This document shows positions 3,046 through 61,104 of a stretch of DNA of 64,000 nucleotides, one piece after another; within the stretch, counting starts at the first letter, position 1, and each line of letters starts with the position of its first letter. This stretch comes from an uncultured virus (IMG/VR IMGVR_UViG_3300024272_005753) (Duplodnaviria > Heunggongvirae > Uroviricota > Caudoviricetes): IMG/VR virus record IMGVR_UViG_3300024272_005753. One strand, 5' to 3'. The notes below the pieces were generated by a model that was not told the DNA's origin, made no database searches, and saw only the letters and a list, made by a program, of their open reading frames with translations. The translations under genes and the position numbers were made by a program.

Positions 3046-3074
3046 TTGATGTAAATGCCTAAATATGATATAAT
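3046..3074 (+). promoter_or_regulatory. sigmaA-type promoter with extended -10
   Basis: TTGATG-17 nt-TATAAT with TG (aaatatgaTATAAT). Confidence 0.7.
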
Positions 3075-3100
3075 ATATATGATAAAAGGAGGTGTTAAAA

Positions 3101-3793
3101 ATGAAGTATATTATTAGTGATATACACGGTGAATATCAAATGTTCTTAAAAATGTTAGAGAAAATAAATTTTTCTAACAGTGATACTTTATATATATTGG
3201 GTGATGTTGTTGACAGGGGACCAGAACCTATAAAGGTTTTGCAATATATAATTGATAAGCCTAATATTATTTTAATTAGGGGTAATCATGAACAAATGAT
3301 GTTGGACGCCATTTGTTTGTCTAAAGACAAAAAAGAATATGTATCTACTATTAATTCTAGGCTGTGGATGAGAAATGGTGGATTTGTTACGGTCGACCAA
3401 TTTTTGAATTTGCCATTCGAGGAACAGAAAAAGATTTATAAGTACATTGGAGGTACAGAATTATTTAAAATTGTTGATAAAAATTTATTGGTTCATGCAG
3501 GAATTCCAATGTATAAGTTTGATTATAAAGATGATGAGGAATTATCGCTGGCGATGAAAAAAGCAAATAAAGATTATTTGCTTTGGGATAGAGATATGGT
3601 ATATAATGATGAATTTTTTTTAGATAATTATCATATTTATATTGGGCATACACCAACACTTAAGTTACATGATACTAATAAAATATATAAGACAATGGGG
3701 TTCACACTTATTGATGGGGGAGCATGCTTTGCTCCTGGAGTATTAATATGTGTGTGTCTTGATAACAATAATGTTTATTATCAAGAAAAATAA
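3101..3793 (+). CDS. Ser/Thr protein phosphatase-like metallophosphoesterase (calcineurin-like)
   Basis: DIHG, GDVVDRG, GNHE, HAG and GHTPT motifs; RBS AAGGAGG. Confidence 0.9.
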   Translation: MKYIISDIHGEYQMFLKMLEKINFSNSDTLYILGDVVDRGPEPIKVLQYIIDKPNIILIRGNHEQMMLDAICLSKDKKEYVSTINSRLWMRNGGFVTVDQFLNLPFEEQKKIYKYIGGTELFKIVDKNLLVHAGIPMYKFDYKDDEELSLAMKKANKDYLLWDRDMVYNDEFFLDNYHIYIGHTPTLKLHDTNKIYKTMGFTLIDGGACFAPGVLICVCLDNNNVYYQEK

Positions 3794-8331: not shown

Positions 8332-10164
8332 TTATTCAATCGCTGCACAATCACTAACGACGGTATCGAAACTATTTTCGATTATTTCGCCATTAATTAG
8401 GGCATCAAGCTCCGCACCATCAATGCTCTCTTTTTCAATTAAGCGGTTTGCAATGCGCTCAAGGGTGGATTCATTTGCTTTTAATAGGTCGATTGTCTCT
8501 TGATATAAGGTGGTAGCCATTCTAGAAGCTTCTGAAAGAATATCTTTGTCCGTATTTTCAAATTGGTCAAGAGCTAACATACCATTATCACCCATACCAT
8601 AAGTACCGATATAGTCCTTAATTAAGTTGGTAGCCTGCTTAATATCCTGGCTTGCGCCCGTAGTAATTTCGTCATCATCCTTTAAAAGGATATATTCAGC
8701 AGCACGACCTGCGTACATAACCTTTATTAAGTTGCGCAGGTATTTCTTACTTTGGACAGCTTTTTCCTTGGGGCTTCTAAAAGTGACTCCACCTGCTCCA
8801 GATGTGGAACCAACGATTGTTACAGAAGGAACATCGTCATCAGTTAGTAGCTTTGTGGCTAAAGCATGACCAGATTCGTGATATGCAATCAGGCGATTTT
8901 CTGCAGAATCACGCTTGCTTTGCTTCTTGTTACCACGCATGACAATCTGGAAAAAGGCATCTTCTATGTGCTCGGAAGAAATAACTTTTGCTTTCTTGCT
9001 AATAGCAATAAGTGCAGATTCATTAAGAAGACCTTCCAGTTCAGCGCCACTAAATCCCATGGTTTTATCAGATAGATTGTGTAGGTCAACACCGCTATCA
9101 AGCTTTTTATTTTTCGCATGACGAGCAAGAATTTCATATCTTCCCTGTTTGTCAGGTAGAGGAACGGCTAGCTGCTTATCGAAACGACCAGGACGAATTA
9201 GAGCGCTATCCAACATGTCTAGGCGGTTCGTGGCACAAATGGTCAGAATGCCTTCCTTGCCTTTAAAACCGTCTAGCTCAGTTAGTAAAGCGTTGATAGT
9301 CTGGTCTCGTTCGCTATTCTGAGATAGACCACGCTTACCACCAATAGCATCAATTTCGTCGATAAAAACAATACAAGGAGCGATTTTGCGAGCCTGAGCG
9401 TATAGATTACGAATACGCTGAGCGCCAACACCGACATACATTTCAATAAAGTCGGAGCCGCTTGCACTTAAGAATGGTACTCCAGCACTTCCAGCAATGG
9501 CCTTGGCAATTAGAGTCTTACCAGTTCCAGGAGGGCCATATAGAACGATACCCTTAGGCATTCTAGCACCCATTTCAGTAAGTAGGGATGGATTCTTTAG
9601 ACATTCAATATCGTTTTGAACACTAGCCTTTAATTCATCGCAACCGCTTACATCGTCAAATGTTACATTTGGCTTTTCGGCAACAACTGCACCATTATTG
9701 GTCCCTCCTCGTTCTTTCTGCTGTAGCATGTCAATGTTCTTCATTGCAGAATCGGTCATTTTGCCAAGACCTGCCATAATAATGGCGGTTACAAGACCAA
9801 ACGCACCAAGCACAAGAAGCACAACAGTTAATGGAGACATACCACTGGAAGAGGTAATGACCTGTTCAACTTCGGCTAGTTCATTAAGTTCAAGAAGAGG
9901 GGTTAATTCTTCATTATATTCTAAAACCTTATAATGGCCTGCTTCAGTTTTGTAATAAGCAGTAGAACCATCAATTACAACTTTAATAACTTCTCCATTA
10001 TTTACCTGGCTCAGAAGAGTTTCATTAGTAACAGATTCGTACTTGACAAAAGGTTCTGGCGTTACTGCAAAATGGTTAAATGCAGAGTTAATAAGGAATG
10101 TCAAACAAATGGTGATAGTTAAAAAAGTAATTAGAGATACACCCGTGTTTTTATTAGTTTGCAT
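8332..10164 (-). CDS. ftsH: ATP-dependent zinc metalloprotease FtsH
   Basis: Two TM helices; Walker A GPPGTGKT; Walker B IVFIDEID; SRH motif ALIRPGRFD; HESGH zinc motif. ATG follows GAGGAGG. Confidence 0.93.
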   Translation of the reverse strand: MQTNKNTGVSLITFLTITICLTFLINSAFNHFAVTPEPFVKYESVTNETLLSQVNNGEVIKVVIDGSTAYYKTEAGHYKVLEYNEELTPLLELNELAEVEQVITSSSGMSPLTVVLLVLGAFGLVTAIIMAGLGKMTDSAMKNIDMLQQKERGGTNNGAVVAEKPNVTFDDVSGCDELKASVQNDIECLKNPSLLTEMGARMPKGIVLYGPPGTGKTLIAKAIAGSAGVPFLSASGSDFIEMYVGVGAQRIRNLYAQARKIAPCIVFIDEIDAIGGKRGLSQNSERDQTINALLTELDGFKGKEGILTICATNRLDMLDSALIRPGRFDKQLAVPLPDKQGRYEILARHAKNKKLDSGVDLHNLSDKTMGFSGAELEGLLNESALIAISKKAKVISSEHIEDAFFQIVMRGNKKQSKRDSAENRLIAYHESGHALATKLLTDDDVPSVTIVGSTSGAGGVTFRSPKEKAVQSKKYLRNLIKVMYAGRAAEYILLKDDDEITTGASQDIKQATNLIKDYIGTYGMGDNGMLALDQFENTDKDILSEASRMATTLYQETIDLLKANESTLERIANRLIEKESIDGAELDALINGEIIENSFDTVVSDCAAIE

Positions 10165-10192
10165 GTTAATCCTCCTCAAATAATCTAAATAT

Positions 10193-10221
10193 ATAATAAC
10201 ATATTTTTGATAAAATATCAA
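10193..10221 (-). promoter_or_regulatory. sigmaA-type promoter of ftsH
   Basis: Minus strand TTGATA-17-TATTAT with aaaatatgt extension. Confidence 0.7.
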
Positions 10222-10376
10222 GGTTTGTGCAAATATTTCTTTAGATATTTTATGAAAAATAAAAAGTAGTAATTCGTCGTTTTTGCATATAGACAAATTA
10301 GAAAAAATATGATATAATATAAATAGAAATAAAAAATTTCTAACAATTAAATACCGTTATAGAAAGGTGGAATTTT

Positions 10377-18290: not shown

Positions 18291-19238
18291 TTAGAGAATT
18301 TCGCGGAGAGCTTTCTTGGCTGCAGGGGTCTGCAGCTTTTCAAGGGCCTTCTTGTAGAGCTGACCGATACGCTGCTTAGAAACACCATATCTTTCTGCCA
18401 GTTCATCAAAGGTTTCCTTCTGGCCACAGAAGCCAAAATGGCAGGCGAGAATATCGGTTTCTCGGTCGGTGCAATGCTGCTTAATAAGTCTGAGGATACA
18501 CTGGGTACGTTCGTCCTTAAGGTAGTTACCTTCGACGTCCTCATTCTCATCTACAACCGTCTTTCCGATAGAATCCTTATCGTCGTTGCCTTCGTAATCG
18601 AGGCTCAGAACTTCGGAATTCTTCTTCGCGGCCATGGCTTTCTTGATGTCAGAAACCTTTAGGCCCGTTGCCTTAGCCAAATCCTTATCGGTGTATTCGA
18701 TATTGGCAAGTTCAAATTCGCGCTGTGCGTTATTGATTTTGCCAATCATCTCAACCATATATACAGGAAGTCTCATTGCAGAGGTATTTTCCTGCAGACA
18801 GCGCCTTACGGTAGCAGTACACCACCATGTAGCGTATGTACCGAAGGTGTAGCCCTTAGCGGGGTCAAAGCGGTCCACGGCCTTTACAAGGCCCAGATTG
18901 CTTTCCTGGACGAGGTCCAGAAGAGGTACGCCTCGGTTCTGATACTTCTTGGCGATGCAAAAGGCTAGACGTAGGTTATGCTGAATAACCTTATTCTTTG
19001 CCTCTGCTGTGCCCTCCTTGATGAGTGCGGCAACTTCCTGCTTAGAAAGCAGAGGATACCGTCCGATTTCTCTCAGGTAGGACTTAACAGCATCTACGCT
19101 GTAAGAGTCGGCTACAATCTCTTCGGACATTTCTTCCTCAGAGACTTCTTCTACACTGTCGAGATTCATCTCATCGTCAGTGGTTTCCATAATGTCCTTT
19201 GCCATCTCTTCGATGTCATAGTTAGCTTTTCGGCTCAT
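18291..19238 (-). CDS. RNA polymerase sigma70-family factor (RpoD/SigA-like, divergent)
   Basis: Region 1.2 DAVKSYLREIGRYPLL; region 2 DLVQESNLGLVKAVDRFDP...TYATWW; region 4 HTH TFDELAERYGVSKQRIGQL. Confidence 0.9.
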   Translation of the reverse strand: MSRKANYDIEEMAKDIMETTDDEMNLDSVEEVSEEEMSEEIVADSYSVDAVKSYLREIGRYPLLSKQEVAALIKEGTAEAKNKVIQHNLRLAFCIAKKYQNRGVPLLDLVQESNLGLVKAVDRFDPAKGYTFGTYATWWCTATVRRCLQENTSAMRLPVYMVEMIGKINNAQREFELANIEYTDKDLAKATGLKVSDIKKAMAAKKNSEVLSLDYEGNDDKDSIGKTVVDENEDVEGNYLKDERTQCILRLIKQHCTDRETDILACHFGFCGQKETFDELAERYGVSKQRIGQLYKKALEKLQTPAAKKALREIL

Positions 19239-19270: not shown

Positions 19271-19936
19271 TTATTCATCTGCTACAGAGTTCTTAGCAAG
19301 GCTAAGAATCATATCCACTACGTCACGGTGGTCGAGCAGAGTGGGGTATGGACGAATTTTGAAAGACATTGCTTTCTTGATTGGGATGCCACCTGCATCA
19401 CGCCAAGCATTTAGATTGCCTTTCCAGTCGTCAATAAGAAAGGCACGCTTAAGAGAATTAAGCTGAGTTTTCTTCATTGCATACTCTGCTTTGTTGTCTC
19501 CTACATTGCAGAAAAGCATTTGCTTGTTTGTGATGAAAGGCATATGTTCTTTCAGTGCAGCTTTCTTTTCATCTTTACAATGTGCAGTTTGTACACATGC
19601 AGACAGAATGAAAATACGCACACCAATCAACTGCAACGCCTCATAAATTGCGATGTTCTTCATCGGGTCCAGATTTCTGTAAAAACCTTCATCAAACATT
19701 CTTTCAAGGACGTCTACGTCATTGGATTTCCCGTAGGAAAATCTGAATAACGTATTATCCATATCCAAGAACACTGTAACGTTGGATATCCAACTTTGGT
19801 TTGCGATAATCTGTGCGACGAACTGAGATTTGTCGATGGGTTTGTATATGCCAAAAACGACAGAAATTCTATCAAGAACATCATATTTTGCCAAAATATC
19901 GTATGCCCGCTCAAACTTTTTAGTTTGAATTACCAT
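19271..19936 (-). CDS. HAD-family 5'(3')-deoxyribonucleotidase-like protein
   Basis: FLDMDNTL, FYRNLDP, ILSAC and LIDD motifs; TTGTAT-17-TATAAT promoter upstream. Confidence 0.7.
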   Translation of the reverse strand: MVIQTKKFERAYDILAKYDVLDRISVVFGIYKPIDKSQFVAQIIANQSWISNVTVFLDMDNTLFRFSYGKSNDVDVLERMFDEGFYRNLDPMKNIAIYEALQLIGVRIFILSACVQTAHCKDEKKAALKEHMPFITNKQMLFCNVGDNKAEYAMKKTQLNSLKRAFLIDDWKGNLNAWRDAGGIPIKKAMSFKIRPYPTLLDHRDVVDMILSLAKNSVADE

Positions 19937-21276: not shown

Positions 21277-22119
21277 ATGTCCTCAAAAGAAGTCGTACTC
21301 GTTCAACGCATAACAAAAAAACAAAATAAAGTAGATTTTGCAGTAATTGAAAATAGTATTCTTGGGAAAAAGAACAAAATAACACTAACCAGGAATGATA
21401 TGAAAATTCGTGCATCTAAAATTATTTTTAATGGTTTGCATGGATATGGGTTAGATTTTTATGGGCACACAATACTTAAAGAAGCAGGTGTTCCGTCCAA
21501 AATAATTATGGAAAAGATTGATGATGGGACTATTTTGGTTTTTATAAGCTATAGCACTGCAGATTCAAATATAAACGAATTAATTGCAGAATCTATCAAT
21601 ACTCGTTGTTTGGGCATTGATATGGGGAAAAAGAACACTTTTGCAATCGTTAATAATTTTAATAGAGACCCTATTTTGATAAAGGGTACAATGATGGCTA
21701 AGCTATATAACGAAGAGCCTGAAAAATTTTTAGAATATTTAAAAAATGCTATGAGATTTTTACAAGAATACATAGTAAAAAACAACGTAAAAGTTATCTA
21801 CATAGGAGATATGTATAAATATAAACCATATGACATAATCTTGAATCATGTTAAACGATTAAAATGTGTTAAAATCGTTGTTGTAGATGAAGCAAATACT
21901 TCTAAAGCTAGTTTCTTGGATAAAGATATTCTTTGTGCAGAAGGAGATTTTTCTGGGAAGAGATTGACCAGGAGTCAATATGTTTCAAAAGATGGCACAA
22001 TCTTTTCTGCAGATATTAATGCAGCATATAATATTTTGGTAAAAGGAAATCCTTTCGCTTTATATGATGTGCATAACCCAAAACTAAAAACGGTTGATTA
22101 TCAAATTAATGAATTATAA
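21277..22119 (+). CDS. Miniature TnpB-derived RuvC-fold protein
   Basis: LGIDMG (RuvC-I), VIYIG, VDEANTSKASFLD and FSGKRLTRSQY...SADINAAYNIL (RuvC-III) match IS200/IS605 TnpB motifs; only 280 aa. Confidence 0.75.
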   Translation: MSSKEVVLVQRITKKQNKVDFAVIENSILGKKNKITLTRNDMKIRASKIIFNGLHGYGLDFYGHTILKEAGVPSKIIMEKIDDGTILVFISYSTADSNINELIAESINTRCLGIDMGKKNTFAIVNNFNRDPILIKGTMMAKLYNEEPEKFLEYLKNAMRFLQEYIVKNNVKVIYIGDMYKYKPYDIILNHVKRLKCVKIVVVDEANTSKASFLDKDILCAEGDFSGKRLTRSQYVSKDGTIFSADINAAYNILVKGNPFALYDVHNPKLKTVDYQINEL

Positions 22120-26893: not shown

Positions 26894-27154
26894 TTACTTA
26901 GTATAAGCTTCCTTAATAGCATCAACAATCTTCGCTCTCAGCTCGGAAGTGATAGGATATGCAGTGTTTCTACGAGTATATGTACCATCTGCATTCTTCT
27001 TAGACTTCTCAGGGTTGAAAACCATAAGAGCGCCATCCTTCTCGACAACGCGGAAACCGTCTACGACGAACTCGCCATCAAGACAAACGCTTGCAAATGC
27101 CTTAAGGCTACCCTTTTCCTCAACCTTGGTTACTCTAGCTTCAGTTACAATCAT
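26894..27154 (-). CDS. spoVG: SpoVG family nucleic-acid-binding protein
   Basis: VTEARV...LKAFASVCLDGEFVVDGFRVV...AYPITSELR; TTGACT-17-TATAAT promoter at 27273-27301. Confidence 0.85.
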   Translation of the reverse strand: MIVTEARVTKVEEKGSLKAFASVCLDGEFVVDGFRVVEKDGALMVFNPEKSKKNADGTYTRRNTAYPITSELRAKIVDAIKEAYTK

Positions 27155-27402
27155 CTTAATTGCCTCCTTAAAAATAATTAACAAAATTTTTTAACCGCAT
27201 CGGTATATACTATATTATTTTGTATAAAAATTTTTTATTCAAAATATATGTGGTAATTCCGATGACGTGTTCATTATAACATATTTTATTTTAAAAGTCA
27301 ATAGGGATAGACCTTCAACAAGAAAAATTTTTATATATTTTGTTCGAGTTATATAATACTATATAAAATACTCGAAAGTATTAAGTTAGGAGGTTATTCA
27401 TA

Positions 27403-33709: not shown

Positions 33710-34477
33710 ATGGCATTACAAAAAGATGTTGCTGCTAAAATGAAGCAGTATCAGAAAGAGAAGACAATTTTAACTGGCGTTGTCAAGGTTGCTCAAGTCA
33801 ATCGAGACAAAAATAGAGAGGAACTAATCGTTGATATTGATGGTGTTAGAGGTCTTATTCCTAAGGAAGAGATTGATATGTCTTTTACCTTTAAGTCTTT
33901 AATTACCTTTGTTGGCACTACCGTTAAGGTTGTAGTTCAGAATGTTCCTGCTAATGGAGATTTTGTTATCTGCTCCAGAGCGGAAGCTCAGAAGTTAATG
34001 GCTCCTAAGATTTTGAGCCGTCTAGAAGATGGTGAATTCTTTGAGGGCAAGATTATCAATATTTTACCTTATGGTGCTTATATTGATATTGATGGTGTAG
34101 TTGGTCTTTTAAAGAATACCGATTATGCTGAGGACTATACATCTATTAAGGAAATGCATCACGTTGGTGATACCATTCAAGTTAAGATGAAGGGTCGTTC
34201 TTCAAATGAAAAACTTTTATTTGAAGCTGTTACTAAGTATGTTAGTCCTACTGTTATTACCAGAGAAAGCCTTGAACCAGGTCAAATTATTTATGGTGTA
34301 GTGAGAAGTGTTCAGCCTTGGGGTGTATTTGTTAATATTCTTCCAAACCTTGATGCTCTCGTGGATTCTGAGTTCGCTGATATTCAGGAAGACCAGAAAG
34401 TTGCAATCAGAATTAAGTCTATTAAGCAGGATGATGACAAGTTTAAGGTTCGTGGTAAGATTGTAAGCATTCAGTAA
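33710..34477 (+). CDS. Multi-S1-domain RNA-binding protein (ribosomal protein S1-like, 3 domains)
   Basis: GVRGLIP, GKIINILPYGAYIDIDGVVGLL and GVVRSVQPWGVFVNI repeats. Confidence 0.85.
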   Translation: MALQKDVAAKMKQYQKEKTILTGVVKVAQVNRDKNREELIVDIDGVRGLIPKEEIDMSFTFKSLITFVGTTVKVVVQNVPANGDFVICSRAEAQKLMAPKILSRLEDGEFFEGKIINILPYGAYIDIDGVVGLLKNTDYAEDYTSIKEMHHVGDTIQVKMKGRSSNEKLLFEAVTKYVSPTVITRESLEPGQIIYGVVRSVQPWGVFVNILPNLDALVDSEFADIQEDQKVAIRIKSIKQDDDKFKVRGKIVSIQ

Positions 34478-43474: not shown

Positions 43475-43561
43475 TATTAAGCCCTCCGTTTCTCAAATCT
43501 TCTTAAATAATATATTTTACGATATTTTTATATATTATATTAAAAAGGAGTGATTTATAAA

Positions 43562-44239
43562 ATGCGTATTTTAGGTATTGACCAGGGGATAGCCAATATG
43601 GGATATTCTATTCTCGAAGATGATAAACTTATTACATATGGTTGTATAAATACAACTAGCAAAGATTTTTTAGAAGAACGTTTTTTTATTATTTATTCTA
43701 GAATTAAAAAAATTATTGAAGAATATAAACCAGAAGTTATCTGCTGTGAAAAATTGTTTTATACTTCTCCGAAGGAAGGAAATAGAAATAAGTCTGCATC
43801 TATTATATACACAAATATGATTACTGGGGTTTTGGCTGCGTTATGTGGAGAATTCGAAATTGAATTAAGAATGTTTGTTCCAAGCAAGGTCAAAAAAGCA
43901 GTGTGTGATAATGGCAAAGCAGAAAAAGATGAAATGATTACAAAAATTAAATCTTTATACACTGTAGAATCTGACAAAACAAAATATGAACACGTTTGTG
44001 ACTCTATTGCGATTGCTTTCACTTGTTATGTTGAGAACAAAGAAAATCCAGAAATAAGAGCTGAATTTGAAAATAATAAAAACCTTAAAATTAAAAGAGT
44101 AACTGAGGATGAAATTAGAAGATTAAATAAAATCGATAAAGAACGCAAAAAGTTAAAAAGAGAGATTGAGAGAAAAAGAAAAAAGGCTGAAAAGTTAAAA
44201 ATACAACAAGAAAAAGCATTAAAACGGCGTAAAAACTAA
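43562..44239 (+). CDS. ruvC: Holliday junction resolvase RuvC with basic coiled-coil tail
   Basis: ILGIDQG, CCEKLF, PSKVKKAV...GKAEK and EHVCDSIAIA motifs. Confidence 0.88.
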   Translation: MRILGIDQGIANMGYSILEDDKLITYGCINTTSKDFLEERFFIIYSRIKKIIEEYKPEVICCEKLFYTSPKEGNRNKSASIIYTNMITGVLAALCGEFEIELRMFVPSKVKKAVCDNGKAEKDEMITKIKSLYTVESDKTKYEHVCDSIAIAFTCYVENKENPEIRAEFENNKNLKIKRVTEDEIRRLNKIDKERKKLKREIERKRKKAEKLKIQQEKALKRRKN

Positions 44240-44843: not shown

Positions 44844-45086
44844 ATGAAAGATACAGGTGTTGTACGCAAGATTGACCCACTTGGCAGATTAGTTATTCCC
44901 AAAGAGTTGAGAAAGGCTTTAGGGCTTGGGACTAACGAACCTGTTCAAATTTACGTAGAAGGAAATCGTATCTGTGTAGAAAAGTACAATAAGGCTTGTC
45001 TTATTTGTGGGAGCACAAAAGATGTATTTCCCATTAAGGATAAAAATATTTGTGCTGAGTGCGCAGAATTGATTAAGGAAATCTAA
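44844..45086 (+). CDS. abrB: AbrB family transition-state regulator
   Basis: MKDTGVVRKIDPLGRLVIPKELR plus C-terminal CLICG...ICAEC. Confidence 0.9.
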   Translation: MKDTGVVRKIDPLGRLVIPKELRKALGLGTNEPVQIYVEGNRICVEKYNKACLICGSTKDVFPIKDKNICAECAELIKEI

Positions 45087-47963: not shown

Positions 47964-49235
47964 GTGGCTAAAAGAGTTGAAAAAGTAATGAATGAATATA
48001 GCGATAGAGATTTTCAAGCATTGTTGTCTATATATAATTTTAGATGTTTGTCCATGAATCAATTGTTTGATTTACATTATAGATTTTCTGGGAAAAAGGA
48101 AGTGACTTCTGAGTATTTAAGAAAAAAGATTATTAAAATGAAGAAGGATAATCTAATTGAAGAATCTAGGCTTGTAAGTAAGAAGGCTCCTGTTGTCTAT
48201 TTTTTAACAAATGACGGAATCCAAGCCGTTCGCATGTATTTTAATTTGTCTAATAATATATATGATACTAAGAAGAGAATTCATGAAAGAGGATATTATA
48301 CTTATTCTGAAATAAAAGTGGCAGATAGATTTATTCCACATCAATATAACTTGAATCAATTTGCTTTGACTTCTATTGATTACTTAAAAAGTAAAGATAT
48401 TGGATACTCATATGTTGATGAAAGACATGTTTCTCAAACATATGGAATTCGACCAGATGGGATTTTATCGACTTTGGGGTTAGATATATTTTTAGAAATG
48501 GATATGGGAACCGAATCATTGTCTCAGTTGAAAGAAAAATGGAATCATTATAGGAGTTATTTAGGGTCTCAAAGCTATATAGATAATGGGAAAAAGATTA
48601 TTATATTTTTCATTTGTTATAATAAAGGCAATATTACGGAAAGAATTAAAGTCATAAAAAATTCATTAAATGAGCATTTTATAGATTGTTTAAAAGAAGT
48701 TGAAGTGTATGTGGGATTACCAGAAAAATTAATGTCGGTATTAAAAAACATAATTGTTCCTTTTTACACGACTGGCAAAAGTGAAATGTATGAAGAATTA
48801 ATTACCAATATTAAACGACATGAATTTAAAGTTGCTTCTGGTATTCAAATGGCAAAATATTTAGACAATACAAATTATACATTTTATATTAAAAATGAAG
48901 ATGGGAAAGATTTTTTAGTTCATGAATTTTTTGGAGAACCTATCGGTGCTATGAACAGAGTCGTTTTCCATGAAAAAATTAATAATTTATTTGAGAAAAA
49001 ATTTAATAAATCTTTGCCATTACTTTTGATTGGAACAAACGAAGATACAATAATTGAAAATATAGATTTATTTGTTGTTTCTGATATCCCAAATGTATAT
49101 TTTTCTACATTAAAAAGGTTGAATACTATGCCTTTTAATGAAGCATTATTTAAAATAATGCCAGATGGTAGTATTTATTCATTCACTGAAGACTTTCAAA
49201 ATATAAAACAAACGGAGAAAATAAATAAAAAATAA
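47964..49235 (+). CDS. Replication-relaxation family protein
   Basis: RDFQAL...QL...VYFLTNDG wHTH; PHQ; IRPDG; FLEMDMGTE...KWNHY nuclease motifs. Confidence 0.8.
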   Translation: MAKRVEKVMNEYSDRDFQALLSIYNFRCLSMNQLFDLHYRFSGKKEVTSEYLRKKIIKMKKDNLIEESRLVSKKAPVVYFLTNDGIQAVRMYFNLSNNIYDTKKRIHERGYYTYSEIKVADRFIPHQYNLNQFALTSIDYLKSKDIGYSYVDERHVSQTYGIRPDGILSTLGLDIFLEMDMGTESLSQLKEKWNHYRSYLGSQSYIDNGKKIIIFFICYNKGNITERIKVIKNSLNEHFIDCLKEVEVYVGLPEKLMSVLKNIIVPFYTTGKSEMYEELITNIKRHEFKVASGIQMAKYLDNTNYTFYIKNEDGKDFLVHEFFGEPIGAMNRVVFHEKINNLFEKKFNKSLPLLLIGTNEDTIIENIDLFVVSDIPNVYFSTLKRLNTMPFNEALFKIMPDGSIYSFTEDFQNIKQTEKINKK

Positions 49236-49417: not shown

Positions 49418-50761
49418 ATGTTTAGTAGTACTAATGTAAAAATGTTAAACAAAAACAAATATAAGACAACCGAAAAAACATTGGCTCAAAAGATATTTTT
49501 TACGTCAATGATTTTAGTAATTCTTCAATTTTTATCTCAAATTCCTATTTGGGGGATAAACCGAGATTTAATTAGTTTTTGGTTAAATAGCGACATGAGT
49601 GGTATTTTTGGAATATTTAATATTTTTTCTGGTATGTCGTTTGAGAATCTTTCATTCTTTGCTTTAGGTATTGCGCCATATATTAGCGCATCAATTATTT
49701 TGCAATTATTGAGAGTTGCAATTACTCCTTTGGACCAGATGTGTAAAGACGCACAAAATGAAAAGAAGTTTGTAGAAAAAATTACTTATGGGTTTGCAAT
49801 TATTATTGGTATTTTACAAGTGATTCCTTTGGTGATGAATTTTTCGACTAGCGGTTTATTGGTTAATAACAGTTTTTCTTGTAAGCTTTTAGTTGGTGCT
49901 TCCATCTTATTCGGTAGTGCGATAATGATTGCTTTAGGCAAGATAATTGAAAATAAGGGGATTGGTAATGGTATTTCATTAATATTGTTAATGAATATCT
50001 TGTCATCTATGCGTGGTGACTTCATAAATATTTATAATACTTTTATTTACAATAACGAAATTACAACTATTATTTTAACTGTTTTGATTGCTGTACTGGT
50101 CCTGACATTTTCTTTTGTTTCCGTTATTTATCTGTGTGAAGGGAAGAAAGATATAAAGGTTACTTTTTCTGGTAAAATGCATGGCGGGAAAATGGTTAAA
50201 TCTGCAGATAATATTATTCCCCTAAAGGTTAATATGTCTGGTGTTATGCCAGTTATTTTCGCATCTACATTAATTCAATTGATTCCTATGATTACTGCCA
50301 TACTAAATGTTTCTGAAACTAGTATCTTGAACGAAATTTCAAAATATTTTAATCAAATATATTGGTTTGATTTTTCGAATATCCAATATACTTTTGGTAT
50401 CTTAATTTATTTTGTATTGATTGTCTTTTTTTCTTATTTTTATAATATGATATCTTTCAGTTCAAAAGATATCGCTGACAATCTTAACAAGCAAGGTGGA
50501 ACAATTGCAGGTATTAGGCCAGGTAAATCAACTAAAGAGTATTTAGATGGGCAAATTAAGTATATGGTATTATTAGGTTCGTTAATGTTAATTATTATTT
50601 CTATTATTCCAATGATTATTGGTGGAGTAATCAACATTAACTTAGCTTTTGGGGGAACATCTATTATTATTGTAGTAAGCGTATTAATTGAAACTTATAA
50701 AACAATTAAATTGGAAAAACAGAGAGAAACTGTTGCTCCTAGAAGATATAGCGTATTTTAA
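49418..50761 (+). CDS. secY: Preprotein translocase subunit SecY (divergent, stand-alone)
   Basis: FALGIAPYISASIILQLL, GIGNGISL, IPLKVNMSGVMPVIFA, GIRPGKST and FGGTSIIIVV motifs. Confidence 0.93.
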   Translation: MFSSTNVKMLNKNKYKTTEKTLAQKIFFTSMILVILQFLSQIPIWGINRDLISFWLNSDMSGIFGIFNIFSGMSFENLSFFALGIAPYISASIILQLLRVAITPLDQMCKDAQNEKKFVEKITYGFAIIIGILQVIPLVMNFSTSGLLVNNSFSCKLLVGASILFGSAIMIALGKIIENKGIGNGISLILLMNILSSMRGDFINIYNTFIYNNEITTIILTVLIAVLVLTFSFVSVIYLCEGKKDIKVTFSGKMHGGKMVKSADNIIPLKVNMSGVMPVIFASTLIQLIPMITAILNVSETSILNEISKYFNQIYWFDFSNIQYTFGILIYFVLIVFFSYFYNMISFSSKDIADNLNKQGGTIAGIRPGKSTKEYLDGQIKYMVLLGSLMLIIISIIPMIIGGVININLAFGGTSIIIVVSVLIETYKTIKLEKQRETVAPRRYSVF

Positions 50762-50774
50762 GGGGGAAAACAAT

Positions 50775-50936
50775 ATGTTTAAGAAATTAAAAAATGAAAT
50801 TAACAGAATTAAATGGCCTGACAAATGGTTACTTGCTGAAGATTTAAAAGTTGTCTGTATTGGAGTGATTGGTTTAATACTTGCAATATCTATTATTGAT
50901 TGGCTTTCTAAGTTAACGCTTGGATTAATATTTTAA
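50775..50936 (+). CDS. secE: Preprotein translocase subunit SecE
   Basis: 53 aa; EINRIKWP (ExxxVxWP-like) followed by one TM helix ending IID; 13 nt downstream of secY. Confidence 0.8.
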   Translation: MFKKLKNEINRIKWPDKWLLAEDLKVVCIGVIGLILAISIIDWLSKLTLGLIF

Positions 50937-59235: not shown

Positions 59236-59324
59236 TTTATAATTGTTTTCTTCTTGAATGCTTGTCAGAGTGTATTTTTTATGTTATAATATATAAAAAT
59301 AGCAAATATCCCGAGGTGAAAATT

Positions 59325-59852
59325 ATGAAAATTATATTTTTGGACGTTGATGGTGAATTAACATATTCTGATTATCACAACGCTGAGACATCAGAAATTG
59401 ATGTTGAAAAAGTTAAACTCTTAAAAGAAATTTGTGATAGAACTAGTGCAAAAGTTGTAATTAGTTCTAGCTGGAGAGGAAATGAAGATTATACTCCTAG
59501 AATTTATCATATTCTTAGAAAGATTTTAGCGGATTATGACGTTGATGTTATTGGCGATTGTCCATATATTGACGTATGTTTTGTAAAAAATGAAGTTACA
59601 GAGAAAAATTATTTTGATACTGCCAATATAGATAAATATATTGTAGAGCATGGTACTGGACGAGCTGCGGAAGTTGAACAGTGGTTAAAAGAGCATCCTG
59701 AGACTGAATCCTATGTTATTCTTGATGATGAAGACCATGATTGGAAAGATTATGGGATGGAAAAGAATTGGGTTCGTCCGACTTGGTTTGGAGATGGTGG
59801 GTTGAAAAGAGAACATGTTGAAGCTGCAGTAAAGATTTTGAATAATATTTAA
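59325..59852 (+). CDS. HAD-domain protein (Swiss-Army-knife RNA-repair-associated type)
   Basis: IIFLDVDG, VVISSSWR and YVILDD motifs. Confidence 0.8.
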   Translation: MKIIFLDVDGELTYSDYHNAETSEIDVEKVKLLKEICDRTSAKVVISSSWRGNEDYTPRIYHILRKILADYDVDVIGDCPYIDVCFVKNEVTEKNYFDTANIDKYIVEHGTGRAAEVEQWLKEHPETESYVILDDEDHDWKDYGMEKNWVRPTWFGDGGLKREHVEAAVKILNNI

Positions 59853-59897
59853 GTTAAAAGCAACCAAATTTTTGGTTGCTTTTGTTTATTTTCACTA

Positions 59898-59926
59898 TTG
59901 ACATTGGTTTTTAAATATGTTATTAT
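59898..59926 (+). promoter_or_regulatory. Strong sigmaA-type promoter with no downstream ORF
   Basis: TTGACA-17-TATTAT with TG extension. Confidence 0.75.
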
Positions 59927-59932
59927 AAACAT

Positions 59933-60222
59933 GTAAGGTACAAACTAATTAATACAAATATAAAAAGCCTTACGAAATAAGATGGATGATAATACTTTAC
60001 AAACTAACTAATAATAAAATAGGTATTATTATGAAATCTAGGATGGCAGAGGACTGCCAATAGATAATTGGCTTTACCGAACGATTCCGCCGCAAATGTT
60101 TAGGGATTGATTCTGGTCCGTTGTGGAGCTTTGAACTCTACATAAATACAGAAACTTATTATTAAATTATATTAAACTTATGGAAGATACCACTGCCAAA
60201 GGCCACGGCGGTGGTATTTTTC
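59933..60222 (+). ncRNA. Candidate structured small RNA (~290 nt)
   Basis: Bounded by a promoter and a GC-rich terminator; several stem-loops; no ORF of 60 aa or more and no convincing RBS. Confidence 0.5.
60187..60222 (+). terminator. Intrinsic terminator of the candidate sRNA
   Basis: GATACCACTGCC-aaaggccac-GGCGGTGGTATT followed by a T run. Confidence 0.7.
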
Positions 60223-60237
60223 TATTTTAAAATAGAT

Positions 60238-60405
60238 ACCATTTTCCTGGGTCCAGGAAAATGGTTAGAAATAAAATAATAAACATATTTCGAATATTTT
60301 GTTCGCAGGGGTTCTTCAGCTCAATCCTGCACGCAGCGGAGACTAAAAGAGAATAATAAAAATATATAAATTATTGTTTTGTAAAGCAATTATCTGGGTC
60401 CCTGG
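60238..60405. repeat. Second palindrome/motif block
   Basis: ACCATTTTCCTGG-GT-CCAGGAAAATGGT; TGCACGCAG; ATATAAATTATTGTTTT; CTGGGTCCCTG. Confidence 0.6.
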
Positions 60406-60495
60406 AACAAATAATTTGTGATTATGTTTGACTTTTATAAGAAAATATGTTATAATATAAGCAATAGATTAACATGTTGAAAGGAAATTGAGAAT

Positions 60496-61104
60496 ATGTG
60501 GGAAATGAAAGATTCCAATAAAGACCCTCGTGAGTTTAGTGCTAGATATAGTAATAATAAGCGCTGTGGGCTCTGTAAGACGTTTTTTAGACCTAATGAG
60601 AAGTTCTATATTATTGTTATTCCCAGCGCCCTGAGAGGCTCTCACGCCCGTTTAAAAGAGAATATGTTTGTTCATGTTGATGAATGGGAAGAGATTTGTA
60701 CTGGTGTAACTACAGACGAAGAGCTTGCAGCAAAAATTATTGCCGCCAAGTTTCCCAAGAGAAACGAACTAACACAGGATGAGAGCGACCATTTGGAAGC
60801 TTTTAAAGAAGCGTGTACGGCGCACGGTTTCCGAATGGAAGTTTCTAAGCCTTATGGGGTTCGAATGAAAAAGCGTGGCACATCCATGTATTTGGATTAT
60901 AATGTATATATGGATACTATTAGTTTTGACCATCGTGGACAGCATGGTTTGTTTGATAGTTTTTATGAAAGACAGATTATCGCTAATATTTATAATAAAA
61001 TGCATGAGCTGCTTTCTGATGGCAAACATGACGATTACGATTATAAAGATAGTATCAATAAAGTTGCTGCTGAAGTCGGCAAGACTATGAATGAAATTTT
61101 CTAA
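60496..61104 (+). CDS. Hypothetical protein with N-terminal CxxC motif
   Basis: RCGLCK...FVH; TTGACT-17-TATAAT promoter at 60428-60456. Confidence 0.65.
   Translation: MWEMKDSNKDPREFSARYSNNKRCGLCKTFFRPNEKFYIIVIPSALRGSHARLKENMFVHVDEWEEICTGVTTDEELAAKIIAAKFPKRNELTQDESDHLEAFKEACTAHGFRMEVSKPYGVRMKKRGTSMYLDYNVYMDTISFDHRGQHGLFDSFYERQIIANIYNKMHELLSDGKHDDYDYKDSINKVAAEVGKTMNEIF

Follow-up and report, generated by a model that had tools for sequence, protein, structure and literature searches.

A Candidate Stand-Alone Small RNA Gene with Twin A-Rich Loops on a Large Plasmid-Like Element from Animal Gut Metagenomes

A 64,000-nt stretch of DNA from an uncultured virus (IMG/VR record IMGVR_UViG_3300024272_005753; hereafter the window) contains a putative stand-alone non-coding RNA gene of approximately 290 nt, which may act in trans through two A-rich hairpin loops and appears to be carried by a large element of a gut Firmicute; we assign this reading a probability of roughly 55%, and we consider it likely that the unit is a real, functional RNA gene. 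The original prediction, which was made from the letters of the sequence and had proposed an independent, ORF-less (ORF, open reading frame), structured unit at this locus, is backed by a promoter family, a terminator, strand-specific folding, and conservation in two of the three metagenome runs that could be compared. Three of the lines of evidence presented below (i.e., the promoter family, the folding, and the insulation of the unit by terminators) are independent of each other and suggest that the unit is more than a product of chance.

A Candidate RNA Unit between Two Predicted Terminators

The candidate RNA unit is located inside a 643-nt gap (59853–60495), the largest intergenic gap within the window, and has a predicted promoter and a predicted intrinsic terminator of its own but no ORF of appreciable length, which is the make-up of a stand-alone small RNA (sRNA) gene; promoter, terminator, and fold are sequence predictions throughout. 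The features of the locus are as follows (aa, amino acids):

59262–59852, gene encoding a HAD_SAK_2 protein (196 aa; Pfam PF18143), upstream of the RNA unit
59855–59884, + strand, intrinsic terminator of the upstream HAD_SAK_2 gene (13-pair stem formed by a perfect 13-nt inverted repeat, T-rich tail)
59898–59927, + strand, σ70-type promoter (TTGACA at 59898–59903, 17-nt spacer, TG-extended TATTAT at 59921–59926; 11 of 12 matches)
60187–60221, + strand, intrinsic terminator of the RNA unit (11-pair stem with one G·U pair, 60187–60197/60207–60217; 9-nt loop, then TTTTT)
60496–61104, + strand, gene encoding a 202-aa protein, downstream of the RNA unit and on the same strand

Both the promoter (TTGACA, 17 nt, TATTAT) and the terminator of the original prediction were thus found at the positions given there, the promoter with the TG extension in addition, and the description of the unit as ORF-less also holds, as the longest ORFs within it encode only 25 aa (+ strand, 59986–60063, initiated by ATG) and 32 aa (− strand, 59997–60095). 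The terminator at 59855–59884 is predicted to insulate the unit from transcription entering from upstream.

The extended −10 part of the promoter (59913–59927) is a member of a family of 15-mers of the AAATATGnTATAATA type, of which the window holds 11 copies with up to two mismatches (at 3061, 10192, 10305, 12823, 19969, 27272, 31315, 53494, 59913, 60443, and 63710), as compared to 1.71 expected; none of 100 shuffles reached 11 copies. Most copies also have a TTGA-type −35 element at equal distance. Each of the other ten copies is followed on its own strand, after 13–89 nt, by an ORF of 60 codons or more, and the copy at 59913–59927 is the only one without such an ORF within 200 nt. This copy therefore looks like a functional promoter of the type used by the replicon, and the pattern suggests that it drives something other than a protein gene. 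In the metagenome runs described below, several otherwise unrelated contigs matched only the promoter core 60428–60460 or 59895–59932. One highly uniform promoter thus seems to recur across the element and its relatives; a σ70 family factor is also encoded on the element itself (18291–19238).

Predicted Structure and the Twin Loop Motif

On the + strand, the minimum free energy (MFE) of the unit was −76.9 kcal/mol, as compared to −50.5 ± 4.2 kcal/mol in 200 dinucleotide shuffles (z = −6.33), and none of the 200 shuffles folded as well; the same was true after removal of the terminator (z = −3.81, 0 of 200). The − strand presented z = −1.67 for the whole unit (10 of 200 shuffles as good) and z = −0.83 without the terminator (41 of 200). 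This strand asymmetry is what RNA helices containing G·U pairs give and DNA palindromes do not. The predicted structure includes the following elements, in addition to the terminator hairpin:

59933–59973, + strand, hairpin 1, GUAAGG(U)/(G)CCUUAC (59932/3–59939 paired with 59967–59973/4; 27-nt A-rich loop)
59986–60032, + strand, hairpin 2 (12 pairs, 59986–59997 with 60021–60032; 23-nt A-rich loop)
60036–60065, + strand, hairpin 3, AUCUA/UAGAU (60036–60040/60061–60065) enclosing UGGCAG-AGGA-CUGCCA (60044–60049/60054–60059)
60068–60119, + strand, central GC-richer segment (in the MFE model, a weak 4-pair hairpin at 60068–60080 and the helix 60082–60088/60103–60109)
60111–60153, + strand, hairpin with the core UGUGGAG/CUCUACA (60122–60128/60136–60142) within UUCUG/CAGAA in the MFE model
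60143–60181, + strand, A/U-rich linker, mostly single-stranded (mean unpaired probability 0.64), with AAACUUAU twice (60152 and 60174)

Stem 1 (GTAAGG/CCTTAC) and stem 2 (ATAATAC/GTATTAT) of the original prediction are both part of this structure, the latter inside the 12-pair helix, and so are the two further hairpins that had been listed, TGGCAG-AGGA-CTGCCA within ATCTA/TAGAT and TGTGGAG/CTCTACA, each at the coordinates given for it. For the central segment, pair probabilities in the MFE helix were 0.96–1.0, while an alternative local hairpin (60104–60108/60115–60119) had a pair probability of 0.0.

The two A-rich loops open with the same 16-nt motif (59939–59954 in loop 1 and 59998–60013 in loop 2; 15 of 16 positions identical), so that the near-identical loops that had been noticed at the outset were recovered. 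When Y is put at the differing position, the 64 kb hold no mismatch-free match other than these two, which are 59 nt apart; a third match has two mismatches, with 0.58 matches expected by chance at up to two mismatches. Two partial repeats (40 nt, 73% identical) are likewise 59 nt apart. The motif is predicted to be largely unpaired, with a mean unpaired probability of 0.87 in loop 1 and 0.96 in loop 2. The motif core, CAAACU, occurs in loop 1 and loop 2 of the window sequence as well as in both loop-1 variants that were readable (one from run X18 and one from a loose end of record 12 of run X16, see below), and the spacing around it varies between variants. No k-mer was over-represented overall in the RNA unit; in a post hoc test, AAACT (AAACU in RNA) was found four times, i.e., in both loops and in both AAACUUAU copies of the linker, as compared to 0.95 expected.

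Direct repeats of this kind could also represent a DNA-level element, in which 16-bp repeats 59 bp apart bind a DNA-binding protein (as an operator, iteron, partition site, or recombination site), while the inverted repeats would be there by coincidence. Such an element would be consistent with the exactness of the direct repeats and with genes of the replication, relaxase, and recombination types in other parts of the window (Replic_Relax, 47964–49235; RuvC-like, 43550–44239). However, the folding is strongly strand-asymmetric, the repeat has only two copies, none of the adjoining genes is for replication or partition, both copies fall within hairpin loops shortly after a promoter, and the motif takes indels in variants; a DNA-level function is therefore improbable.

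Natural Variants and the Search for Relatives

The stretch is present in metagenomes recorded as animal gut or feces (24 runs from 18 studies were listed, none of them an RNA run and six of them possible sources of the DNA). Variants were compared by using contigs of four runs from four studies over 59262–61104; these variants, which were seen in part, are approximately 86–99% identical to the window, and the changes placed below are among the differences listed, which give a partial picture. One run (X11) had no contig over 59944–60377, leaving three runs (X8, X16, and X18) in which the RNA could be compared to its flanks. The RNA was better conserved than the flanks in two of these, X8 and X18, and less so in X16. 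In X8, one contig (record 27, 59913–60132) differed at one of 220 positions (59974 G>A), as compared to 20 of 509 in the upstream gene (Fisher p = 0.007); 31 of 1001 positions differed in the record over 60104–61104. In X18, 2 of 234 positions differed in 59989–60222, as compared to 31 of 804 in flanking coding pieces (Fisher p = 0.019), and all three differences in the record over 60119–60266 (60235, 60251, and 60252) were outside the RNA. Upstream of the RNA, in a loose end before 59913, X18 kept the −35 hexamer, at the same distance, and the −10 part, while the intervening spacer was identical at only two of nine bases, a pattern that selection for promoter function would be expected to produce.

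Changes within the predicted structure were found in stems and in loops. Two one-sided changes, 59974 G>A and 59967 G>A (the latter in a loose end), each turn a U·G pair of hairpin 1 into a U-A pair and, like the loop indels, agree with the predicted structure. Loop 1 carried indels in X18 (after 59939, at 59950, and at 59958), and loop 2 carried a 2-nt deletion at 60014 in X16 and a further change, 60020 T>C. Record 12 of X16 also had an additional A after 60051 and a 1-nt deletion at 60054; together, these would appear to leave hairpin 3 as a 5-pair stem with a larger loop that lacks AGGA. The three indels of this record (−2 at 60014, +1 at 60051, and −1 at 60054) would shift the frames of both short ORFs mentioned above, which argues against coding by either of them. 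A small protein, encoded by the 25-aa ORF at 59986–60063 or by another short ORF, can accordingly be given next to no credence; while the 25-aa ORF does start with ATG on the + strand, it is not preceded by a Shine-Dalgarno-like sequence, its start lies within the stem of hairpin 2, and the deletion at 60014 would put it out of frame.

The same variants bear on whether the unit is a cis-acting leader, i.e., a riboswitch-like sensor or protein-dependent attenuator in which the terminator at 60187–60221 sets read-through into the 202-aa gene and beyond. The unit is on the same strand as the downstream genes, and the order promoter, structure, and terminator is that of attenuators. In addition, two pairings are conceivable, that of CCGCCG (60088–60093) with CGGCGG (60205–60210; 3′ terminator arm) and that of UGGCAG (60044–60049) with CUGCCA (60193–60198); both were read directly from the sequence, and chance alone would be expected to produce complementary stretches of six bases in an RNA of 291 nt. 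Against a leader stand the 270 nt, including a 13-pair hairpin, between terminator and gene, and the promoter of the 202-aa gene itself, a perfect copy of the 15-mer (0 mismatches) with full consensus at 60428–60456, i.e., between the terminator and the ORF. Furthermore, the spacer (60223–60427) is less conserved, with at least seven differences in X8, and no riboswitch, T-box, or leader family matched even at E values up to 10. A leader hence seems rather doubtful.

The spacer presented further structure of its own. A palindrome (60221–60236) directly follows the terminator of the RNA and is itself followed by a perfect 13-pair hairpin (60238–60265), which reads as a terminator on the − strand; a weak promoter-like site was found on the same strand at 60480–60452. 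The segment 60223–60445 (fold z of approximately −3.9 on the + strand and −3.8 on the − strand), which is less conserved than the RNA in X8, could represent another non-coding unit of about 200 nt, convergent with the RNA. A 31-aa ORF (60261–60356) was considered as a type I toxin and dropped; the differences at 60325, 60342, and 60349 would each change an amino acid.

Several observations weigh against a functional, trans-acting RNA, starting with the variants of run X16. Record 13 of this run (59985–60419) differed from the window at 29 of 435 positions, as compared to 12 of 609 in flanking gene pieces (p = 0.00015, in the opposite direction), and record 12 (59968–60096) presented 14 differences and four gaps in 129 nt; the RNA pieces of X16 are thus more diverged than the flanking genes, which weakens the argument from conservation. 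X16 clearly holds more than one variant, and the flanks and the RNA pieces may derive from different strains. Among the X16 changes at 60107, 60109, 60110, and 60114, three (60107, 60109, and 60114) would break pairs of the MFE model, two in the helix 60082–60088/60103–60109 and one in the helix 60111–60115/60149–60153, unless they are compensated on arms out of view. The four changes do fit the alternative hairpin 60104–60108/60115–60119, with three in its loop and one turning a U·G pair into a C-G pair, but the energy model gives this hairpin no weight. In addition, several of the variant contigs have a depth of 2–7, at which single differences can be errors.

The searches for relatives point in the same direction. 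A blastn search (distant mode) with 59853–60495 yielded no match among phage and plasmid records, an exact 29-mer of the RNA core had no match in a set of one genome per GTDB species, and a profile of the 202-aa neighbor yielded no confirmed match in the same set. Searches of IMG/VR with the 202-aa neighbor, the HAD neighbor, and a degenerate pattern of the core returned nothing; a gapped twin-motif pattern returned two loci, both of which are plain tandem repeats unrelated to the RNA. Nine metagenome loci (L001–L009) carry relatives of the 202-aa gene (44–50% identical) in tightly packed rows of genes, with no comparable gap upstream of the gene and no match to the RNA by blastn, nhmmer, or a single-sequence covariance model. 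The upstream ORFs of 196–200 aa at these loci are not HAD homologs, and a 68-aa ORF that precedes the gene there had only an 8-residue match in the gap of the window, which was not significant when compared to the whole window. A single-sequence covariance model and blastn found only terminator-like (12-bit) or AT-rich noise on the 404-kb plasmid pJFP838A, and no paralog of the RNA was found in the window. As far as these searches show, the RNA appears to be confined to close relatives of the element. The lack of a comparable intergenic region at the nine loci suggests that the RNA is young or mobile, and its lack beside relatives of the 202-aa gene indicates that the downstream gene does not depend on having it as a partner. 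No relative below approximately 86% identity, as would be needed for an analysis of covariation, was found in the phage and plasmid records, IMG/VR, the GTDB species set, the nine loci, or pJFP838A.

As for a mode of action, duplexes of loop 1, loop 2, and the motif with 60 translation-initiation regions of the window were no better than those of shuffled loops, in a search that covered the window only, i.e., less than a third of the element, and hence says little; no partner protein for the RNA was identified. Finally, a transcript flanked by a strong promoter and a terminator need not have a function. The unit might accordingly be functionless or decaying sequence, in which a promoter of the type common on the element and a terminator bracket an AT-rich spacer by accident, any transcript amounts to noise, and the hairpins have been left behind by a duplication. 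The lack of homologs beyond near-identical strains, the lack of the RNA beside relatives of the downstream gene, the divergence in X16, and the indels in the loop sequences all favor this explanation. Nevertheless, we regard it as unlikely in view of the strand-specific fold (z = −6.3), the four to nine times fewer differences in X8 and X18 than in flanking genes, the −35 and −10 boxes that were kept across a diverged spacer, and the neat insulation of the unit by terminators on both sides.

Known RNA Families, Proposed Role, and the Replicon

No match at the gathering score was found in the whole window for any of the 4227 models of Rfam 15, and ARAGORN identified no transfer RNA or transfer-messenger RNA (tmRNA) gene in it. 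A sensitive Rfam scan of 59700–60600 (E up to 10) listed 19 matches, with scores of 7–23 bits as compared to gathering scores of 40–140 and with E of at least 0.21; these include a tmRNA match (7.2 bits) on the − strand over the terminator. The unit therefore does not belong to a known family by these searches, as had been surmised in the original prediction; no similar sequence was found in the collections searched either, and the literature on the RNA itself was not searched. Two classes of RNA were considered and dropped in addition to the leader families discussed above. Signal recognition particle RNA, considered because the element encodes SecY and SecE, had no model among the matches even at E up to 10. 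Type III toxin-antitoxin systems (ToxI-like) consist of tandem near-identical repeats followed by an endoribonuclease toxin gene; here, there are only two partial repeats, and no Pfam, NCBIfam, or PADLOC match was obtained for the downstream proteins. The candidate is probably an orphan sRNA gene of a known kind, i.e., a promoter-to-terminator small RNA gene on a mobile replicon.

The unit had also been proposed to act as a sponge for CsrA-like proteins, based on the presence of several GGA triplets. There are indeed six GGA triplets in the RNA, but this is no more than expected by chance (mean of 5.48 in 2000 shuffles, 988 of which reached six). An apical AGGA is present in the loop of hairpin 3, and two further GGA triplets are mostly unpaired (at 59984 and 60041, with unpaired probabilities of 0.66 and 0.99), so that three of the six are predicted to be unpaired; the other three are buried in stems (unpaired probability of at most 0.05). 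The sole match to the Csr family (CsrC, 12.2 bits as compared to a gathering score of 61) is weak and is located on the upstream terminator, outside the RNA, none of the 69 window ORFs scanned with Pfam encodes CsrA, and the apical AGGA seems to be missing from one variant, owing to its indels at 60051 and 60054. Sequestration of a GGA-binding regulator by a CsrA/RsmA-type sponge is thus very improbable. S1 and SpoVG had been named as other possible partners; genes for both are present in the window, but nothing links either of them to the RNA.

The candidate can be compared with several described systems. Trans-encoded sRNAs of Firmicutes (e.g., RsaE/RoxS) show one short C-rich motif in several unpaired regions; the unit described here is likewise an intergenic promoter-to-terminator unit without an ORF, with several hairpins and a short sequence repeated in unpaired regions, but it is longer (about 290 nt), matches no Rfam family, has no target found, and its motif is A-rich (core CAAACU) and so unable to mask a Shine-Dalgarno sequence in their way. 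With CsrB/RsmZ sponges it shares many hairpins, one apical AGGA loop, and the idea of repeated sites for one protein; unlike in these sponges, GGA is not enriched and it is another, A-rich motif that is repeated; moreover, no Csr/Rsm covariance model matched inside the RNA, and the window has no CsrA gene. Plasmid antisense control RNAs (RNAI/CopA type) have stable hairpins with exposed loops as their interaction surface. The candidate resembles them in its location on a mobile replicon, its stable hairpins with exposed loops, and its strong, constitutive-looking promoter; it differs in that no gene or promoter-terminator unit is present on the opposite strand over 59932–60222, no replication gene is adjacent, and the RNA is two to four times longer. 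Like ROOL, GOLLD, and HEARO, all of which are in Rfam, the candidate would be a structured non-coding RNA whose function is not known, on a mobile element of a low-GC Gram-positive host, but it is much smaller and matches none of the Rfam models.

For a stand-alone, trans-acting RNA, we propose that a primary-type σ factor (that of the host, or the one encoded by the element at 18291–19238) would recognize TTGACA-17-TGnTATTAT, and that transcription would start near 59933 and end at the terminator at 60187–60221. In the resulting RNA, two 5′ hairpins would hold open A-rich loops of 23–27 nt with a shared 16-nt start, followed by three GC-richer central hairpins, the A/U-rich single-stranded linker, and the terminator hairpin. 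Hairpins at the very 5′ and 3′ ends would protect an RNA from exonucleases in Firmicutes. The RNA would act in trans, and the twin loop motifs would form its recognition surface. We lean slightly towards a protein that binds A-rich single strands and is titrated or delivered by the RNA, as two sites would suit a dimer or a protein with tandem domains; base pairing with target RNAs is the alternative. If the RNA gene is real, protein binding seems the best guess but falls short of even odds, base pairing is a somewhat weaker possibility, and something else is weaker still. It is doubtful, if conceivable, that the RNA is the founding member of a new family of structured non-coding RNAs restricted to one lineage of plasmid-like elements of >200 kb in animal-gut Clostridia, elements with a σ factor, SecY/SecE, an S1-domain protein, and SpoVG of their own; it would capture an RNA-binding protein, either of the element or of its host, through the twin motif and the two AAACUUAU copies.

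The window has a GC content of 33.7% and encodes, among others, the following proteins:

8332–10296, FtsH-like protease
18291–19238, full σ70 family factor
26894–27184, − strand, SpoVG
33710–34477, + strand, S1-domain protein
43550–44239, RuvC-like resolvase
47964–49235, Replic_Relax protein
49418–50761, SecY
50775–50936, SecE (53 aa, PF00584), directly after SecY

RadA-like and RecD2-like proteins and many ORFs without a family are also present. We infer that the replicon is a very large element of plasmid or phage type, with genes resembling those of both, whose host would be an uncultured Firmicute of the animal gut. The protein cluster of the 202-aa neighbor of the RNA sits on a contig of 207,962 bp, so that the element would measure at least 208 kb. 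In curated collections, relatives of this protein were found only on two plasmids of approximately 400 kb (Clostridium perfringens pJFP838A and a Brevibacillus plasmid), at 30% identity. The family of this protein has invariant C24, C27, and H60 and includes 16 clusters among 5.8 billion proteins, nearly all from metagenome assemblies; the protein has no Pfam, NCBIfam, PADLOC, or PDB sequence match, and PADLOC, NCBIfam, and PDB sequence searches of the neighbors of the RNA returned nothing.

SecY/SecE, the FtsH-like protease, S1, and SpoVG represent cell-like machinery on an apparent giant mobile replicon, and the distant relative pJFP838A also encodes SecE, as well as SepF; the best match to SecY in the plasmid collection is located in a ribosomal-protein operon like that of a cell, and not on a related element. 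An ORF for a MazE-type antitoxin (80 aa, 44844–45086) and a 236-aa ORF without a family, which begins one base after it, may form a toxin-antitoxin pair. A 280-aa ORF (21277–22119) has weak matches to a Cas12f1-like TNB domain (Pfam E = 9e-4, below the cut-off) and to a PHROG transposase and may be a TnpB-like remnant. Genes of RNA-end-healing type are scattered in the window (3092–3793, 19271–19936, and the HAD_SAK_2 gene at 59262–59852), the types being a calcineurin-like phosphoesterase (PHROG: NinI-like phosphatase, RNA ligase) and an NT5C/polynucleotide-kinase-like HAD protein; no link between these genes and the RNA was found.

As it stands, the unit is one more orphan sRNA candidate from metagenomes, with good support at the sequence level. 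If the reading as the first member of a new family were true, the RNA would titrate a protein in a way that has not been described for RNAs of Firmicutes. If real, the RNA gene would add a regulatory RNA to the poorly known class of very large extrachromosomal elements of gut Firmicutes, which carry cell-like machinery and most of whose genes have no known function; a twin-loop A-rich RNA could then show how such an element talks to its host, or lead to an RNA-binding protein of new specificity.

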